Shown here one piece after another: positions 14,324 through 44,406 of a DNA stretch of 48,857 nucleotides. Below the pieces are notes generated by a model. The model was not told where the DNA came from and ran no database searches. It worked only from the letters and a program-made list of their open reading frames with translations. Numbering within the stretch: the stretch's first letter is position 1; every line of letters begins with the position of its first letter. Made by a program: the position numbers and the translations under genes. This DNA comes from a virus. The stretch lies in UHGV virus genome UHGV-0138835; one strand, 5' to 3'.

Positions 14324-14425
14324 TTATGGATTGACTAGAAGGAACAAACCGCCGAATAAGGCGACGTTAACAGCGATTGCCGCAGCGATGGCAAAAGCCA
14401 TGGCGAAAACGTGTTTACCGTCCAT
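14324..14425 (-). CDS. possible micro-ORF (33 aa), hydrophobic single-helix peptide MDGKHVFAMAFAIAAAIAVNVALFGGLFLLVNP
   Basis: Read by hand in the gap between the antirepressor and replication genes; weak SD. Confidence 0.25.
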   Translation of the reverse strand: MDGKHVFAMAFAIAAAIAVNVALFGGLFLLVNP

Positions 14426-14558: not shown

Positions 14559-15611
14559 TCAAAGAGCGCCAGCGCGTGTATCGCGTAGCGTTTTTGGTTT
14601 AAGCAGGAAATCAAGTGTCGCAGTGAAGCCATCGCCGAAGTAAAAATCTGAAGCCTTGTTTTTGAATGCTTCGAAGTAGGCGATAAAGCCGTTAATGCTT
14701 TTGTCTTTCAGGTAGTCAGTGAACGCATAGATCTTGCGTTCAAGATCCCGATCAAGTTCAGCAGGTGGCAACAGGCCGTCAAACGTGATGTTAAACTCTT
14801 CCACCACATCGGCAGCGTTTACAGTAGCTGATAGCTTGCGCCATTGTTCAGCGTCAGCCAGATACCCATCGAATTTAGTTACCCGGCAAATGTTAACAGG
14901 CTTAGGTGTTCCGCCACGGCTACGCCATTGCGTTAAAGCCCACTCAATCACTAATGTGATCTCATCCTCCGTATATGCTTTACGTGTTTTTGTTTCTGTC
15001 AGTAGTTCGATGAACGGTTTAGCATCACGACATTTACATCCTGCCTTGTCGTTGTAGAATGCCAGGCAACGCAATGCCGCTTCGTTTACGCCATCCTGAT
15101 TGAACATTTTTTGTTCATTTTCGACAATACACGAAGTGTATATATCTTTTTCTCTTTCTTTTTCTATTTCTAATTCTAATTCATGACCCTTTCCTGACCC
15201 GGTCATGACCCTATCATGACCTTTTTGTGTTGGATTGATTAACTTTTCTAATTTTAATTGCTCCTTCGCTGTGTTTATGGCGGCCCTGTAAGCGCTTTTA
15301 GAAGTCATTGATTGGTCCAGCCTTTTCAATAACTTTAAACAAGTTATGTGGCCTTGAGAACATTCAAACAAACCAATTTCGATGAAGTATTTCATCATTT
15401 CTTCTATACGTTTTTCAGTAGATCCGACGTTTCGCGCAATTATTCTTGCGTCATGTCGTAGGTCAAAAGTTAGATTGTGCTGATCTACGTCATAAGTTAT
15501 TAGTTCTAGGCAATACCAATAAAGCCCGTATCCTTCCAGTCCATAATCTAATAAAACGTTTTGAAGTTTTTCATCGCGGTTCGCATCGCTATCATGCTTA
15601 AACCACTTCAT
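14559..15611 (-). CDS. replication initiation protein (replisome-organizer-like N-terminal domain), contains internal iterons
   Basis: N-terminus MKWFKHDSDANRDEKL…GLEGYGLYWYCLE typical of phage replisome organizers; iterons in the linker region. Confidence 0.6.
   Translation of the reverse strand: MKWFKHDSDANRDEKLQNVLLDYGLEGYGLYWYCLELITYDVDQHNLTFDLRHDARIIARNVGSTEKRIEEMMKYFIEIGLFECSQGHITCLKLLKRLDQSMTSKSAYRAAINTAKEQLKLEKLINPTQKGHDRVMTGSGKGHELELEIEKEREKDIYTSCIVENEQKMFNQDGVNEAALRCLAFYNDKAGCKCRDAKPFIELLTETKTRKAYTEDEITLVIEWALTQWRSRGGTPKPVNICRVTKFDGYLADAEQWRKLSATVNAADVVEEFNITFDGLLPPAELDRDLERKIYAFTDYLKDKSINGFIAYFEAFKNKASDFYFGDGFTATLDFLLKPKTLRDTRAGAL
15138..15221. repeat. putative origin of replication: AT-rich tract plus four 9-bp iterons (TCATGACCC / TCCTGACCC) at exact 11-bp spacing
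   Basis: Iterons at 15181, 15192, 15203, 15214, immediately after the tract tatatatctttttctctttctttttctatttctaattctaat; located inside the initiator gene as in lambda O. Confidence 0.5.
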
Positions 15612-16174: not shown

Positions 16175-16822
16175 ATGAAAACAAAATGGTATGACTTAGC
16201 AAAGCAGCTCATGCGGGCGCAGGGCATGAGTCAGGATTCATTGGCTGATCTCATGGGGATAACCAAAGGTGGCCTTTCGCACTGGCTGAACGGTCGCCGT
16301 GAGCCAAATCTTGAAGATATTGCGCGGATCATGCGGGCGCTTGGGCGTCGGCAGTTTACTGTCACACATGACGGGATGGTTATCGATGATTCTGTTTCTA
16401 ACACGTTACCGGGAGCGCCACCGCGTGATTTAGGCAGTTACCCGGTTGTTGACTGGAAGGATGTAGCAAACAATATGGAAGGCACATGCCGATCAACATT
16501 GCCACACATTACTACTAGCGTTATTTGTTCGGATGATAGTTATTGGCTGGTTGCTAAAGGTGAATCAATGAACGCACCGCAGGGGTTAAGCATCCCGGCG
16601 GGGACTATGATACTCGTTGACCCGCACGCGCCAGCTATTGACGGAAAACTTGTTATAGCACAACTGGAGGAAGGGCAGATACCTACGTTTAAACAGTTGA
16701 TTATTGATGGAGGCCGAAAACTTTTGCGTTCACTGAATCCGTTGTATCCGCCGATCCCTATGAATCCAGAGTCAAAAATCATTGGCGTGGTTGTTGATGC
16801 GAAGATCGTAAACCTGCCATAA
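16175..16822 (+). CDS. CI-type repressor (HTH_XRE + LexA-like S24 peptidase domain), P22 C2-like
   Basis: C-terminal domain closely matches recalled P22 C2 (GSYP…SEDS.WL…G.SM.AP.GLSIP.G..ILVDP……GKLV.A.LE…..TFK.L..D.GRK.L..LNP.YP.I…….KIIGVVVDAK..NLP). Confidence 0.9.
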   Translation: MKTKWYDLAKQLMRAQGMSQDSLADLMGITKGGLSHWLNGRREPNLEDIARIMRALGRRQFTVTHDGMVIDDSVSNTLPGAPPRDLGSYPVVDWKDVANNMEGTCRSTLPHITTSVICSDDSYWLVAKGESMNAPQGLSIPAGTMILVDPHAPAIDGKLVIAQLEEGQIPTFKQLIIDGGRKLLRSLNPLYPPIPMNPESKIIGVVVDAKIVNLP

Positions 16823-17110: not shown

Positions 17111-17401
17111 ATGAGCGTTACAATTATGTATGGAAAATGTGATAGCAAAATGAACGCCAGGGAACGCAGAAGGATAAAAAGAGAAAACGAAAGAAAATCA
17201 TCACCTGCAATTAATAAAACAGACAATGTGGATAAAGCTATTCGATTTGCAAACGAGGAAAGGTGCAAACCAAATAGCATTAAAGAACGTCGCAAAGGAT
17301 CAGTAAAATGGTATACGGAAAATGAAAGCGGCAGCTACTACCACGCAACGCAACCACGCCATTTAGGGGAGAAACCCCTGGATAAAGTCCGTTACCATTA
17401 A
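17111..17401 (+). CDS. N-like transcription antitermination protein (P22 gene 24-like)
   Basis: N-terminus MSVTIMYGKCDSKMNARERRRIKRENERK resembles recalled P22 gp24 (MTVITYGKS…AKTRRHERRRKLA) with an arginine-rich motif; first gene after promoter and nut. Confidence 0.6.
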   Translation: MSVTIMYGKCDSKMNARERRRIKRENERKSSPAINKTDNVDKAIRFANEERCKPNSIKERRKGSVKWYTENESGSYYHATQPRHLGEKPLDKVRYH

Positions 17402-18192: not shown

Positions 18193-18605
18193 TGAGCGTA
18201 AACTCAATCACACTTGGTGGTAACGTTGGCAACGATCTAGAAGTGCGCTACACGCCTAGCGGGAAAGCAATCGGTAGCTTCTCGTTGGCTGTTCAACAGG
18301 GCTACGGTGATAACAAACGTGCAATGTGGGTGACGTGCCTGATATTCGGTGAGCGTGCGGAAAAATTAGCGCCACATATCCGTAAGGGGACGAAGCTGGT
18401 TGTAAGTGGTCGTCTGGACGTTCGCCAGTACGATCGGAACGATGGCACGAAGGGGACGGCGGTCGAAGTAGCGGTTAATGACTTTGAGTTCATGGCAGGA
18501 GGTCAGCAGCAGGGCCAGCAGCAGGGCCAGCGCCAGCCACCGCAACAGAATCAAGGCGGCGGCAATCAACCTCCGATGGACTTCGATGATGATATTCCTT
18601 TTTGA
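18192..18605 (+). CDS. ssb: single-stranded DNA-binding protein
   Basis: OB-fold-like N-terminus, Gly/Gln-rich linker and acidic C-terminal tail DFDDDIPF. Confidence 0.85.
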   Translation: MSVNSITLGGNVGNDLEVRYTPSGKAIGSFSLAVQQGYGDNKRAMWVTCLIFGERAEKLAPHIRKGTKLVVSGRLDVRQYDRNDGTKGTAVEVAVNDFEFMAGGQQQGQQQGQRQPPQQNQGGGNQPPMDFDDDIPF

Positions 18606-18618
18606 TTCAATAGGTTAG

Positions 18619-18900
18619 GTGATGGGTTGTTATTTAAAAGCACCGCCACCGCCGCGAACAAAAGAGCAAGTATTGAAAGAAGCCCGTGATCAAATTGATC
18701 GCGGGTTTTTTATTGCTGGTAGTTCGGCTGAACGGATGGCGAAAAGATTTAGTGACCTGTACGCAAAACAAATATGGTTCGACAACTGGCAGGCAAGTTT
18801 TTACCCACCGCAAAGAAAACCGGATATGCACTGGCCTGAATATGTCGATCCACGCATGCGCAAATATCGCGGGCGTATGGGCCAGGTTATTAACGATTAA
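18619..18900 (+). CDS. hypothetical protein (93 aa)
   Basis: ORF in tightly packed + strand operon. Confidence 0.35.
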   Translation: MMGCYLKAPPPPRTKEQVLKEARDQIDRGFFIAGSSAERMAKRFSDLYAKQIWFDNWQASFYPPQRKPDMHWPEYVDPRMRKYRGRMGQVIND

Positions 18901-18914
18901 TGAGGTATTAAATC

Positions 18915-19139
18915 ATGATCGAAGATAAAGAAGTTGACAATGAAATTCCTGACGGCGCTGATGAACTTATTACTTTCGGTGGCGGGCTGTACGAGTTTGA
19001 AACGTCGGCAGGGTGGATCGATAAGTGGCCTTTTCCAACTCGACAGGAATTAAGCGAACGTAAATCATTTGGCGAAGATGCCGAACGGCTGGCTAATAAC
19101 AAATGGCTTGATAAGTTCATTGCGGAGGGTGGCAAATGA
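18915..19139 (+). CDS. hypothetical protein (74 aa)
   Basis: ORF in operon. Confidence 0.35.
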   Translation: MIEDKEVDNEIPDGADELITFGGGLYEFETSAGWIDKWPFPTRQELSERKSFGEDAERLANNKWLDKFIAEGGK

Positions 19140-19249
19140 ATCTTGCAAAAATTGCCGCATTGCTTGCGGCTTTATCTATCGCCGTGCTGTATCTCAGCGT
19201 GTCGCTTTATATCACGGTAGCGATCATTAAACTCATTACTAACATGTGA
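19136..19249 (+). CDS. micro-ORF (37 aa), hydrophobic membrane peptide MNLAKIAALLAALSIAVLYLSVSLYITVAIIKLITNM
   Basis: ATGA overlap with the upstream gene, SD GGAGGGTGG; below ORF-track cutoff. Confidence 0.35.
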   Translation: MNLAKIAALLAALSIAVLYLSVSLYITVAIIKLITNM

Positions 19250-19257
19250 GGCCAATC

Positions 19258-19377
19258 ATGAAAGTCGGTAAGGATATTGTGACTGTCGCGTTTTGCATTA
19301 TTTGCTTCCTGTTTGTGGTTGTTTCTTGTGGCGCATTTGCTGCGTTGGTTAGCTTTATTTTTAGAGGGTTGCCGTGA
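19258..19377 (+). CDS. micro-ORF (39 aa), hydrophobic membrane peptide MKVGKDIVTVAFCIICFLFVVVSCGAFAALVSFIFRGLP
   Basis: ATG 19258; its stop overlaps the start of the next gene (GTGATGA). Confidence 0.35.
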   Translation: MKVGKDIVTVAFCIICFLFVVVSCGAFAALVSFIFRGLP

Positions 19378-19646
19378 TGAAAACATGGGATGCAAAGGCT
19401 GGTGATCTTGTTGTGTTGCCTGAATATCGTGATGACCCTGGCCTGGTTGTACTGAATAAGGGGAGCTACGATCAGCGCCCGTTACTGGTTAAATATCTTG
19501 ACGGAACAATCATAGAGCCGCGTTTCTTTGACAATATTGAACTGAAGGCCCGCAATGTTCGCGTTAAGCCGTTCCGGGCTTATGTTGAAGACCACTGGCG
19601 GAAATTGTTCGCCGGACTGAATGGGATGTTTGGCGTATGGCTATAA
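19377..19646 (+). CDS. hypothetical protein (89 aa)
   Basis: ORF in operon. Confidence 0.35.
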   Translation: MKTWDAKAGDLVVLPEYRDDPGLVVLNKGSYDQRPLLVKYLDGTIIEPRFFDNIELKARNVRVKPFRAYVEDHWRKLFAGLNGMFGVWL

Positions 19647-19828
19647 AATTAGTGAAAGTTAAAGACCTGAAAGGCGGCGAAAAGATCCGCACGTGGTATG
19701 GCTATAAATTTATTGTCGCTGCCTTTTCTTTCGGGCCAGGGGGTCAAGTAACATTATTTGATGAAGAAGACGACGAGGTGGGTAAATGGCATCTTGAACA
19801 ATATGTTGAGGTGTTAAATGAAAATTAA
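19637..19828 (+). CDS. hypothetical protein (63 aa)
   Basis: ORF in operon. Confidence 0.3.
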   Translation: MAIKLVKVKDLKGGEKIRTWYGYKFIVAAFSFGPGGQVTLFDEEDDEVGKWHLEQYVEVLNEN

Positions 19829-20150
19829 ATTACATAAAGCGTATGATAGCCAGACAAACAAGCTATCACTATTTATTGAGTTCGAACGCCGGATCGTGTG
19901 TGTACCGTGGGCGCGGCGCTTTAATGATGCAGCAGGGCGGCGGCAGTTCGCGTTAGACATGTTGTTACGCGGTTGCGGCCTTATGCGCCCGCTATCTGAT
20001 TTAAAACGGATGATGCCTGGATCGTTCGGTCAGATTGATGAGATTGAAATAAGCCAGGAAGAACTAAAACGGGCGCGTGATTTATTCCTTTCAAGTGAAG
20101 GAAACCCGTTTAATCAAGAAACTGAAATGAAATGGCATCACCCACTATAA
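19818..20150 (+). CDS. hypothetical protein (110 aa)
   Basis: ORF in operon. Confidence 0.35.
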   Translation: MKIKLHKAYDSQTNKLSLFIEFERRIVCVPWARRFNDAAGRRQFALDMLLRGCGLMRPLSDLKRMMPGSFGQIDEIEISQEELKRARDLFLSSEGNPFNQETEMKWHHPL

Positions 20151-21102: not shown

Positions 21103-21200
21103 TTATGGACGACACATTGTTTTATATGTGCTGTTGCTGGGGTTTTATTGCCTTATGCCTGTTTATCAGGTGGTTTATTGAATACCATATGAGGTGATAT

Positions 21201-32202: not shown

Positions 32203-32787
32203 ATGGCTAAGGCTAAAGGCATTAAGTTGCCTCAATTCAAAGTCCCGCTCTTTGAGCATACAACCGTTTTCTTTTGCCCGACCCGCGAGATGTTCTATGA
32301 ATTTTGCGAAAAGGCAGGGATCCCAATCGAACCTGATTTCGAACTGGCAGGGGGATTAACACTTACTTGCACTGGCGAGAAAGGCGGTAACTTCTATGTG
32401 ATCGCAGTATTCGACAATGAGTTAGGAACGCTGGTACATGAAGCGGCGCATACCACATTCCATGTTTTAAGCGATGTAGGCGTCGTTGCAACTACAGATC
32501 CAAGCCATCCGGCAAACGAGACTTATGCTTACATGGTGGGCCGTATCTTTGATGCATTTTTCCCCATCCTGGCAGAATCAAATGAAGCACAGGTTGCAGC
32601 AATGCAGGCCGCTGAAGTCGTAGAGAAGGCATTAGAACAGGCAGAAAAGGCGACTGATGCAGCAGAACAGGCAGTGGAACAGGCAGAGCAGCCGAAAGAA
32701 GAGAAAAAACCAGCTAAGAAAGGCAAACGTAAGCCTAAAGCAAAAGAAGCGCTTGTACCGCGTGTTATGAGCTTTAAACGGGGGTGA
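32203..32787 (+). CDS. HExxH-motif protein with Ala/Glu/Lys-rich C-terminal tail (possible zinc metallopeptidase)
   Basis: LVHEAAHTTFH motif; low-complexity basic C-terminus; between lysis cassette and micro-ORF array. Confidence 0.5.
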   Translation: MAKAKGIKLPQFKVPLFEHTTVFFCPTREMFYEFCEKAGIPIEPDFELAGGLTLTCTGEKGGNFYVIAVFDNELGTLVHEAAHTTFHVLSDVGVVATTDPSHPANETYAYMVGRIFDAFFPILAESNEAQVAAMQAAEVVEKALEQAEKATDAAEQAVEQAEQPKEEKKPAKKGKRKPKAKEALVPRVMSFKRG

Positions 32788-32789
32788 TT

Positions 32790-32858
32790 ATGGTTACTTT
32801 CCTGTTAGGTTTATTTATCGGAATGGCTGCCGCTGTAATATTACTGGTCGGTGAATAA
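32790..32858 (+). CDS. micro-ORF 1 (22 aa) hydrophobic single-helix peptide MVTFLLGLFIGMAAAVILLVGE
   Basis: SD GGGGGTGA 5 nt upstream; read by hand; below ORF-track cutoff. Confidence 0.45.
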   Translation: MVTFLLGLFIGMAAAVILLVGE

Positions 32859-32862
32859 TGTT

Positions 32863-32979
32863 ATGGACGATTATATCATCGCCGGATTAATCGGTATTTC
32901 TGTATTTCTTGTTGGTTCTATCATAGTTGCATTGATAAACGCATATATCAAGCATTGGGTGGGGTTGAAAGATGATTGA
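32863..32979 (+). CDS. micro-ORF 2 (38 aa) MDDYIIAGLIGISVFLVGSIIVALINAYIKHWVGLKDD
   Basis: SD GGTGA 9 nt upstream. Confidence 0.45.
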   Translation: MDDYIIAGLIGISVFLVGSIIVALINAYIKHWVGLKDD

Positions 32980-33046
32980 TCCGCTCATTATCCTTTCTGC
33001 CTGCGTCGCTGTATGGCTGGCGATCATGATATTCATTGAAAGCTGA
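32972..33046 (+). CDS. micro-ORF 3 (24 aa) MIDPLIILSACVAVWLAIMIFIES
   Basis: ATGATTGA overlap with micro-ORF 2; SD GGGTGGGG upstream. Confidence 0.4.
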   Translation: MIDPLIILSACVAVWLAIMIFIES

Positions 33047-33057
33047 AGGTATTCACC

Positions 33058-33132
33058 ATGAATATTTACGATCTAATATGGTGGTCAGTGGTCGCCGTCA
33101 TTATCTATTTCTGGTGGAAGAATGTTGTATAG
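33058..33132 (+). CDS. micro-ORF 4 (24 aa) MNIYDLIWWSVVAVIIYFWWKNVV
   Basis: SD GAAGGT 8 nt upstream. Confidence 0.45.
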   Translation: MNIYDLIWWSVVAVIIYFWWKNVV

Positions 33133-33139
33133 GTGAAGC

Positions 33140-33220
33140 ATGAACGCATACGAAATGCTATTGCTGGTGGCTGTAGTTGTAGTCATTGCTGTTGATTTTT
33201 ATAGAGGGTTTAAAAGATGA
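33140..33220 (+). CDS. micro-ORF 5 (26 aa) MNAYEMLLLVAVVVVIAVDFYRGFKR
   Basis: SD AGGTGA 4 nt upstream. Confidence 0.45.
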   Translation: MNAYEMLLLVAVVVVIAVDFYRGFKR

Positions 33221-33288
33221 GAGAAGCAGACTTCTTTTGCATAATTATAGTGATCGTCATCGTTGCGGTGCTTTTAAGCGTTAACTGA
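33217..33288 (+). CDS. micro-ORF 6 (23 aa) MREADFFCIIIVIVIVAVLLSVN
   Basis: ATGA overlap with micro-ORF 5; SD GAGGG upstream. Confidence 0.4.
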   Translation: MREADFFCIIIVIVIVAVLLSVN

Positions 33289-33305
33289 ATCGCAGGGGGT
33301 TGAAA

Positions 33306-33374
33306 ATGAAATGGCTTGATTTCTTTTTCCTGGTTGTTGCGATTGTTTTTACCATGACCGCGCTGACTCAATAG
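33306..33374 (+). CDS. micro-ORF 7 (22 aa) MKWLDFFFLVVAIVFTMTALTQ
   Basis: SD AGGGGG 7 nt upstream. Confidence 0.45.
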   Translation: MKWLDFFFLVVAIVFTMTALTQ

Positions 33375-33382
33375 GTGAATAT

Positions 33383-33457
33383 ATGGAAACTATCGAAGCC
33401 GTATTATTCGTATGTATCGCGGCGGTTGTTATTGTGGGGTTTATTATCAATGTCTGA
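33383..33457 (+). CDS. micro-ORF 8 (24 aa) METIEAVLFVCIAAVVIVGFIINV
   Basis: SD AGGTGA 5 nt upstream. Confidence 0.45.
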   Translation: METIEAVLFVCIAAVVIVGFIINV

Positions 33458-33518
33458 CGGTGATTTCTTAATCATGGCTATATGCACGTTGTTAGTCGTT
33501 ATCGTTTTCTTCGCATAA
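33450..33518 (+). CDS. micro-ORF 9 (22 aa) MSDGDFLIMAICTLLVVIVFFA
   Basis: ATGTCTGA overlap with micro-ORF 8 (coupled). Confidence 0.35.
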   Translation: MSDGDFLIMAICTLLVVIVFFA

Positions 33519-33527
33519 AGGTAAACA

Positions 33528-33611
33528 ATGAAAGAATTATTCGACTGGTTGGAAGTATTAACATACTGCGCAAGTTTTGTTGCTTGCGTATACATCATCA
33601 ATAAATATTGA
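33528..33611 (+). CDS. micro-ORF 10 (27 aa) MKELFDWLEVLTYCASFVACVYIINKY
   Basis: SD AAGG 7 nt upstream; stop 10 nt before the terminase small subunit start. Confidence 0.45.
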   Translation: MKELFDWLEVLTYCASFVACVYIINKY

Positions 33612-44170: not shown

Positions 44171-44260
44171 TTAGTTTTTGTTTTTCAGCGCTTTTAACAT
44201 TTGCTCGATGAAGTCAGCATAGCGCTCATGTTCGTTGGGGTGGTAGTTTACGTTTTTCAT
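44171..44260 (-). CDS. small ORF (29 aa) MKNVNYHPNEHERYADFIEQMLKALKNKN, upstream partner of the secreted-protein gene
   Basis: SD AAGAGGATAAG upstream of ATG on minus strand; below ORF-track cutoff. Confidence 0.3.
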   Translation of the reverse strand: MKNVNYHPNEHERYADFIEQMLKALKNKN

Positions 44261-44339
44261 TTTCTTATCCTCTTTTGCTTCCTCCGGTCAATCCGGTCTT
44301 TTAAATCCCTTTGCTCTATCCCTTTCCTTTATCTTCTTT

Positions 44340-44406
44340 ATACAAAATGTACTCGTTGAAGTGAAGCCATTTTGTATAAAATAGAGACATAGATCACATT
44401 TTGTAT
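44340..44406. promoter_or_regulatory. inverted/direct repeats of ATACAAAATG / CATTTTGTAT in the divergent region upstream of the tape-measure gene
   Basis: ATACAAAATG 44340-44349; CATTTTGTAT at 44368-44377 and 44397-44406. Confidence 0.45.

Follow-up and report, generated by a model that had tools for sequence, protein, structure and literature searches.

Kil or KilR of lambda, P22 and Rac, together with gp56 of SPO1, are small, non-essential host-takeover peptides encoded in early operons beside recombination genes; lambda Kil is not a transmembrane peptide. Small single-pass proteins of the bacterial inner membrane are typically missed by annotation pipelines, and those with known functions act by intramembrane helix-helix binding (PMC12648545). 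In the coliphage group whose archetype is mEp021, N-like antitermination is carried out by Gp17, which acts at nutR1, upstream of gp17 (PMC11893012). The DNA considered here, virus genome UHGV-0138835 (48,857 nucleotides (nt), the whole of which is called the window below), is identified by its sequence as that of a mEp021-like (mEpimmI) temperate coliphage, and between positions 19136 and 19377 it carries two very short open reading frames (ORFs), here called ORF1 and ORF2. Their pattern of evolution marks them as two separate protein-coding cistrons under purifying selection at the amino-acid level, and they are very probably real genes for membrane-helix peptides.

Coding signature of ORF1 and ORF2

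The two ORFs and the ribosome-binding motifs ahead of them are placed as follows.

19136..19249, plus strand: ORF1, 37 amino acids (aa), MNLAKIAALLAALSIAVLYLSVSLYITVAIIKLITNM, a hydrophobic micropeptide with a single predicted helix
19258..19377, plus strand: ORF2, 39 aa, ATG start, MKVGKDIVTVAFCIICFLFVVVSCGAFAALVSFIFRGLP, a hydrophobic micropeptide with a single predicted helix
19124..19128, plus strand: Shine-Dalgarno sequence GGAGG of ORF1, 7 nt ahead of its ATG
19248..19251, plus strand: Shine-Dalgarno sequence GAGG of ORF2, overlapping the stop codon of ORF1, 6 nt ahead of the ORF2 ATG

The initial annotation, made from the letters of the sequence, had placed two micro-ORFs of 37 and 39 codons in the gap between a 74-aa and a 90-aa gene, and that is where they lie, filling it. 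It had also described the junctions with the neighbouring genes as ATGA-type overlaps. This is true of the first, where the ATG of ORF1 and the upstream TGA share the letters ATGA, but not strictly of the second, where ORF2 and the 90-aa gene overlap by 1 nt within GTGATGA. The stop of ORF1 and the ATG of ORF2 are separated by an 8-nt spacer in the window. GGAGG ahead of ORF1 is kept in 39 of 39 distinct relatives, and either GAGG or GGGG stands ahead of the ORF2 ATG in all distinct relatives. Since each ORF is tightly packed against its neighbouring genes, coupled translation of the two is probable.

Homologous loci (n = 55) came from 7 phages, 4 prophages of Escherichia coli (E. coli) and 44 IMG/VR contigs. 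The interval between the flanking genes measures 228 or 237-239 nt in all but one of them (54/55), and conservation in relatives, which the initial annotation had named as one test of its reading, is borne out, with ORF1 intact in 54 of the loci and ORF2 in all 55. Insertions and deletions inside the ORFs are of 6 and 3 nt, multiples of three, while the spacer between ORF1 and ORF2 is 2, 3, 7, 8 or 9 nt long among relatives. Because its length varies in this way, the two have no conserved relative frame and hence no conserved fused product; a single gene with two transmembrane segments, split or frameshifted into two, was considered and is ruled out, as a spacer of 2-9 nt shifts the relative frame.

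Deviating alleles are few. The sole locus with an interrupted ORF1 (L033, 2260-2290) is on a metagenomic contig and lacks one A in a run of five. Three others (P0082, P0083 and P0132) are rare single-contig variants, some with ORF2 or ORF1 fused out of frame to the sequence that follows, giving products of 48-49 aa.

Substitutions were analysed on distinct nucleotide sequences, 31 for ORF1 and 33 for ORF2. Variable sites at codon positions 1, 2 and 3 number 24, 19 and 35 in ORF1 and 21, 22 and 35 in ORF2. The pooled ratio of nonsynonymous to synonymous change (pN/pS) in the sense frame is 0.30 for ORF1 and 0.41 for ORF2; read in the other frames it lies between 0.81 and 1.46, the exception, at 0.48, being an antisense frame whose third positions coincide with those of the sense codons. 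Taken by halves, from the N-terminal side, the values are 0.35 and 0.25 for ORF1 and 0.31 and 0.52 for ORF2, values similar to those of the flanking genes in a comparison of 8 genomes.

A gene boundary between the two ORFs is seen in the prophage of E. coli STEC308 (L011, 635-1370), where a KilA-N gene has been inserted exactly between ORF1 and ORF2 and both are left intact. The insert takes over the position of the Shine-Dalgarno sequence and ATG of ORF2, and the junction motif ATGTRAGG(n)AATCATG stands on either side of it, as at a real gene boundary.

The repeated ATGTRAGG(n)AATCATG resembles a recombination boundary sequence for gene cassettes.

Taken together, purifying selection, conserved Shine-Dalgarno sequences and ORF integrity are indirect evidence that ORF1 and ORF2 are translated; the mass spectrometry of mEp021 was of virions only. 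The view of the initial annotation that these are coupled coding micro-cistrons is thus upheld by the preservation of the ORFs, the in-frame indels, the third-position bias, the Shine-Dalgarno sequences, the insertion at the boundary and the helices predicted by AlphaFold (below).

The opposite strand carries a longer frame over the same interval.

19207..19395, minus strand: antisense ORF, 62 codons, spurious

The initial annotation had dismissed this ORF as spurious, and the substitutions agree: pN/pS in its frame is 0.84, with no coding signature, as against 0.30 and 0.41 for the sense ORFs, and its first codon positions coincide with the third positions of the sense frame, which are the most variable sites. 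No relative has fewer than 46 open codons in the antisense frame, presumably because its stops would need TTA, CTA or TCA in the sense frame, codons that are rarely used there. This openness, together with the blank that the Prokaryotic Genome Annotation Pipeline (PGAP) shows here for most E. coli prophages, could be taken to mean that ORF1 and ORF2 are open merely by chance in a stretch between genes, the real gene being the antisense ORF or none at all. Such an explanation is extremely improbable and is essentially refuted by the integrity of the ORFs and the pattern of substitution, the sense ORFs being open in 54 or 55 of the 55 loci, with in-frame indels only, conserved Shine-Dalgarno sequences and the much lower pN/pS.

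The hairpin inside ORF1

A terminator is annotated in the mEp021 record (MH706966) at 14882-14898 as TERM_2, placed inside what is here ORF1, and the record shows no gene in the interval. Its counterpart in the window was overlooked by the initial annotation.

19154..19180, plus strand (stem-loop 19154-19170): 6-bp GC hairpin GCCGCA-TTGCT-TGCGGC, then TTTATCTATC, in ORF1 codons 7-15

The hairpin proper occupies codons 7-12. It is identical to that of TERM_2 and homologous in position, the tails being one base apart (TTTG in mEp021, TTTA in the window); it differs in that the window and most relatives have it inside conserved coding sequence, while the published mEp021 annotation has no gene there. 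According to the legend of Fig. 7 in PMC11893012, terminators t1, t2 and t5 have been demonstrated experimentally, and t2 may correspond to GenBank TERM_2.

The stem is of 6 bp, 5 of them GC, with a folding energy of -11.3 kcal/mol, and in the tail UUUAUCUAUC the longest run of U is 3. Shuffled sequence folds about as stably as the hairpin (folding z-score -0.34), and the codons for Ala-Ala-x-x-Ala-Ala (GCNGCN...GCNGCN) dictate four of the six stem pairs. Among the 31 distinct sequences pairing is observed in 87% of cells, some of the changes being compensatory, where synonymous resampling expects 76%; taken singly, no lineage departs from expectation (P at least 0.14). The T-tract, UUUAUCU, is a weak one, and 9 of the 31 variants have none. 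A laxly defined terminator-like motif in the first half of ORF1 is found in 22 of the 31 distinct sequences, as against 7.7 expected from synonymous resampling, though the lineages are related; this excess is suggestive of possible selection. We read the hairpin itself as mostly a side effect of encoding the ORF1 peptide.

The ORF1 clades differ in their GC hairpin and T-rich tail, the positions of which vary within the same part of the ORF.

The hairpin may nonetheless terminate transcription in mEp021-type members, this window included; in that event everything from ORF1 onward, ORF2 and the later genes included, would be delayed-early and dependent on antitermination by Gp17. Termination and coding are compatible within one interval, and this may be an instance of a translated micro-ORF that harbours a terminator. 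One could go further and regard the interval as a regulatory spacer, in which the intrinsic terminator (TERM_2/t2) gates the delayed-early genes, the ORFs are mere relays for coupling and the peptides are irrelevant. The mEp021 record, with its terminator and no genes, would fit, as would the statement in the figure legend cited above that t2 was demonstrated experimentally, the detection of the hairpin at 19154-19170 by a simple scan and the 22 motifs of 31. Against it, amino acids are conserved while synonymous sites vary, most clearly outside the hairpin, where ORF2 and the C-terminal half of ORF1 lie; the stem is mostly forced by codons, its z-score is unremarkable, the T-tract is weak and the lineages that share the motif are related. 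A spacer of this kind is very unlikely to be the whole explanation, and it fails solely in calling the peptides irrelevant.

The peptides and their possible role

When the 323 ORFs of 30-60 aa that the window contains are ranked by hydrophobicity, ORF2 comes first and ORF1 ninth, with a maximum 19-residue hydropathy of 2.85 and 2.39, respectively. ORF1 has an uncharged span of 26 residues between K5 and K32, and ORF2 one of 29 between D6 and R36; these lengths, 26 and 29, are also the typical ones among 79 ORF1 and 91 ORF2 variants, with Lys or Arg on either side and at most 6 terminal residues beyond. With the family alignments, AlphaFold2 predicts one continuous helix for each, covering residues 3-36 of ORF1 (predicted local distance difference test score, pLDDT, 95.5) and residues 5-36 of ORF2 (pLDDT 87.6). 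The uncharged spans, hydropathy ranks and predicted helices all accord with the single-helix membrane peptides that the initial annotation had proposed, and both have the features of the small single-pass class: no more than about 50 aa, one helix and at least 19 uncharged residues.

A mid-helix motif, Y19-x3-S23-x-Y25, is conserved in ORF1 throughout clades A, B and C, which differ in length and C-terminus: 37 aa and AIIKLITNM in clade A, the commonest; 35 aa and AIVKLITDM in clade B; and 39 aa and FIAELIVALLG in clade C. In clade A the C-terminal half (YLxxSLYITVAIIKLITNM) is near-invariant, and the N-terminal half drifts among hydrophobic residues. F12, F17, V22 and G25 are invariant in ORF2, which also has the small-residue motif G25-x2-A28-A29. 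The two are not paralogues (hhalign probability 0.8%). For ORF2, a lipoprotein was considered and rejected, the lipobox-like VVSC being unconserved (VVFC or VIAG in relatives); identity of either peptide with Ipe was likewise rejected, Ipe being mEp021_29, a protein of 77 aa encoded about 2.5 kb downstream.

The explanation favoured overall, and which we regard as rather probable, is that ORF1 and ORF2 are early-operon cistrons for accessory peptides of the inner membrane. In the mEp021-like phage they are Shine-Dalgarno-equipped and probably translationally coupled, and both products would insert as single-pass inner-membrane peptides. Having no soluble domain, they would act only within the bilayer. 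Their most likely action would be to bind side by side, helix to helix, to a host protein of the inner membrane or to one another; the contact face of ORF1 would be formed by the conserved hydroxyl stripe Y19/S23/Y25/T27 and the C-terminal KLITNM, and that of ORF2 by F12/F17/V22/G25xxAA. The peptides would then be non-essential factors, for host takeover or otherwise accessory, during lytic growth or after induction.

Several observations weigh against parts of this reading. The evidence for translation is indirect. Constraint on ORF2 is the weaker, with pN/pS reaching 0.8 in some pairs and 0.52 in its C-terminal half, and the rare frameshift or deletion alleles (L033, P0082, P0083 and P0132) may mean either that the genes are dispensable or that there are assembly errors. 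Counts of Lys and Arg are nearly equal on both sides of each helix, so that the topology of ORF1 and ORF2 is ambiguous, and an efficient embedded terminator would often truncate the mRNA of ORF1. Partner binding as the specific mechanism, being argued from the anatomy of the peptides and their genomic position, is a tentative suggestion and on balance doubtful.

A different target is supposed if the peptides are membrane-damaging toxins of the type I toxin or holin-like kind, which would form pores, depolarise the inner membrane and bring about host shut-off or abortive death with no specific partner. It is in the target alone that this differs from the favoured explanation. The size and the all-hydrophobic single helix are like those of TisB, Ldr, Ibs and the Hok class, and prophages often carry such toxin peptides (PMC12648545); the Ser, Thr and Tyr of the ORF1 helix could line an oligomer. 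The architecture of a type I toxin-antitoxin locus is absent, though, for these are internal cistrons of a long operon, with strong Shine-Dalgarno sequences and no separate promoter: ORF1 has no leader, its start lying in an overlap with the gene before it, ORF2 overlaps the downstream gene, the 8-nt spacer holds only the Shine-Dalgarno sequence of ORF2, and promoter-like sites occur at the level of chance (3 found, 2.7 expected). The locus showed neither an antisense RNA nor a match to an Rfam family. BLASTP of ORF1 against a TisB sequence gave no alignment, and charged or polar residues within the span, like those of TisB, are lacking. Expression of a toxin so early in infection would also be a risk for the phage. 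We consider toxins of this sort unlikely.

Beyond the accessory peptides favoured above, a more specific version can be imagined, in which ORF1 and ORF2 form a phage-specific pair of intramembrane effectors, made only after antitermination by Gp17, that binds and disables a particular machine of the host inner membrane, with ORF1 dual-coded with a functional terminator (codons 7-12). This version is speculative and rather improbable. If it were true, the targets might be the divisome, a component of DNA entry or transport, or a membrane-embedded defence system, ribosome traffic across the ATGA junction could influence termination, and the pair would found a family of micropeptides for host takeover, new to science, in phages that are common in E. 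coli of the gut.

Setting, distribution and known systems

The region is 86-88% identical in DNA to mEp010, mEp013, mEp021, mEp044, mEp515, mEp554 and MagusPhagus, and of 5426 complete E. coli genomes 35 have the same segment in a prophage. Neighbouring genes encode Erf, SSB, Abc2 and an S24 repressor, and the order in the window is S24-type repressor, gp17, a 40-aa gene, erf, ssb, abc2, the 74-aa gene, ORF1, ORF2, the 90-aa gene and more genes. The principal ones named in this report are the following.

16175-16822: S24-type repressor
17111-17401: Arg-rich N-like antiterminator gp17
18915..19139, plus strand: 74-aa gene, homologue of mEp021 gp22; its TGA overlaps the ORF1 ATG
19377..19646, plus strand: 89/90-aa gene, homologue of mEp021 gp23; its ATG overlaps the ORF2 TGA

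The operon with ORF1 and ORF2 begins at gp17 and runs on through erf, ssb and abc2; given the antitermination by Gp17 at nutR1 described for this phage group, the label of early operon is reasonable. The product of the 74-aa gene matches phrog_28542 (E 6.5e-50) and, weakly, DUF2737; that of the 90-aa gene matches phrog_28396 (E 7.5e-54). PDB searches with both flanking proteins gave no match, and the neighbours provide no functional lead. In some E. coli genomes PGAP names the gp23 homologue a "toxin-antitoxin system toxin subunit"; the protein has no match in Pfam, NCBIfam, PADLOC or PDB, and the name is unsupported.

Judged by database searches, ORF1 and ORF2 are orphan families confined to one phage lineage. 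Of 1.84 billion representative proteins searched in full by HMMER, 5 match the ORF1 profile, and all 5 are from this phage group. Word-indexed searches covering 5.8 billion proteins, in which ORF1 was padded with 3 upstream in-frame codons and ORF2 was entered as its 43-aa GTG-extended form (the alignment of a later ORF2 search was headed by a 40-aa homologue), yielded 57 clusters for ORF1 and 73 for ORF2, almost all of them 35-40 aa long. The ORF2 clusters are nearly all of 37-40 aa, two of them being 48-aa frameshift fusions, and where clusters of either peptide carry a source name it is E. coli or Caudoviricetes throughout. With tblastn against 50,697 phage records ORF2 finds only the seven mEpimmI phages; ORF1 gave no match there, known relatives included, its query having probably been masked as low-complexity. 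Neither peptide has anything significant in Pfam, PHROGs, NCBIfam or PADLOC, neither profile matches any PDB sequence at E up to 10, and Rfam has no match over 18600-19900. A scan for the 90-aa neighbour in one genome per prokaryotic species found no relative, and thus no evidence beyond E. coli strains. An assembly collection lists the exact ORF2 peptide in 902 of its blocks. mEpimmI prophages are frequent in human-gut E. coli, and the two abundant gut-phage micropeptides can be nominated for experiment.

ORF1 and ORF2 are not new as records, having been deposited earlier as hypothetical proteins. Both are so listed in mEp010, mEp013, mEp044, mEp515 and mEp554, which were annotated with PHANOTATE, and in MagusPhagus, and both have been called independently by PHANOTATE, by Pharokka and by the caller of a large assembly collection. 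PGAP leaves the interval empty in three of four inspected prophages, and in the fourth, UMNK88, it has ORF2 only. The coding status of the interval would provide a corrected gene map for the mEp021 group, in which the omissions of the mEp021 record and of PGAP are made good.

The initial annotation had further suggested that the number of membrane micropeptides encoded by this phage is unusually large. Sense-strand gaps of the window do hold about 13 candidates for hydrophobic micro-ORFs, in partial agreement with this. Between a 194-aa gene and the small terminase gene (32784-33611, plus strand) there are about 9 such candidates back to back, of 22-42 codons, several with motifs like Shine-Dalgarno sequences and with overlapping stop and start codons. 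The seven mEp relatives cover 58-91% of this stretch, in 2-4 pieces and with 4-7 annotated hypothetical proteins, a pattern which suggests a variable cassette array. A 30-aa hydrophobic ORF rich in Cys and Trp (MDDTLFYMCCCWGFIALCLFIRWFIEYHMR; 21105-21197, plus strand), with a Shine-Dalgarno-like motif, lies in a gap between annotated genes; a 30-aa gene, mEp010_37, stands at a seemingly equivalent place, and four further loci (L057-L060) also have one called. Other candidates in intergenic gaps are one of 33 aa at 14324-14425 (minus strand) and one of 43 aa at 44228-44359 (plus strand).

Of the known systems, those closest in form are AcrZ, KdpF, MgtS, MgtR, CydX and SidA (PMC12648545), which are likewise of 50 aa or less, with one hydrophobic helix and almost no residues outside the membrane. 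ORF1 and ORF2 differ in having no sequence relationship to them (Pfam, NCBIfam and PDB being empty) and in being phage-encoded, in tandem and part of an antiterminated early operon. They also resemble the intergenic small ORFs (smORFs) of enterobacteria described in "The Cryptic Bacterial Microproteome" (PMC11188072), which are short and mostly hydrophobic, lie in PGAP gaps and are recognised by the ratio of nonsynonymous to synonymous substitution rates (dN/dS) and by synteny; compared with those, the evidence for ORF1 and ORF2 is locus-specific (55 loci, a Shine-Dalgarno sequence for each ORF and an insertion at their boundary). With the type I toxins TisB, Ldr, Ibs and Hok, and with BsrG, TxpA and YonT of prophages, they share size, hydrophobicity, membrane targeting and a frequent presence on prophages, but they have no transcription unit of their own, no antisense RNA and no similarity in sequence. 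The features of a holin, antiholin or spanin were not found, as the lysis genes (homologues of mEp021 gp46-48) lie about 11 kb downstream, at about 30.7-31.9 kb, and only 4-6 terminal residues are present where the holin class would be expected to have a charged C-terminal cytoplasmic tail.

The likeness to Kil-type peptides is one of position, in an N-antiterminated operon just downstream of genes for recombination and for countering RecBCD; neither PHROGs nor Pfam relates ORF1 or ORF2 to Kil or KilR. ORF1 and ORF2 are ordinary examples of a well-known class, the small hydrophobic phage genes, which belong by sequence to no described family. As two orphan families of transmembrane micropeptides, outside Pfam and PHROGs, they add to the candidates for interaction between phage and host at the membrane.

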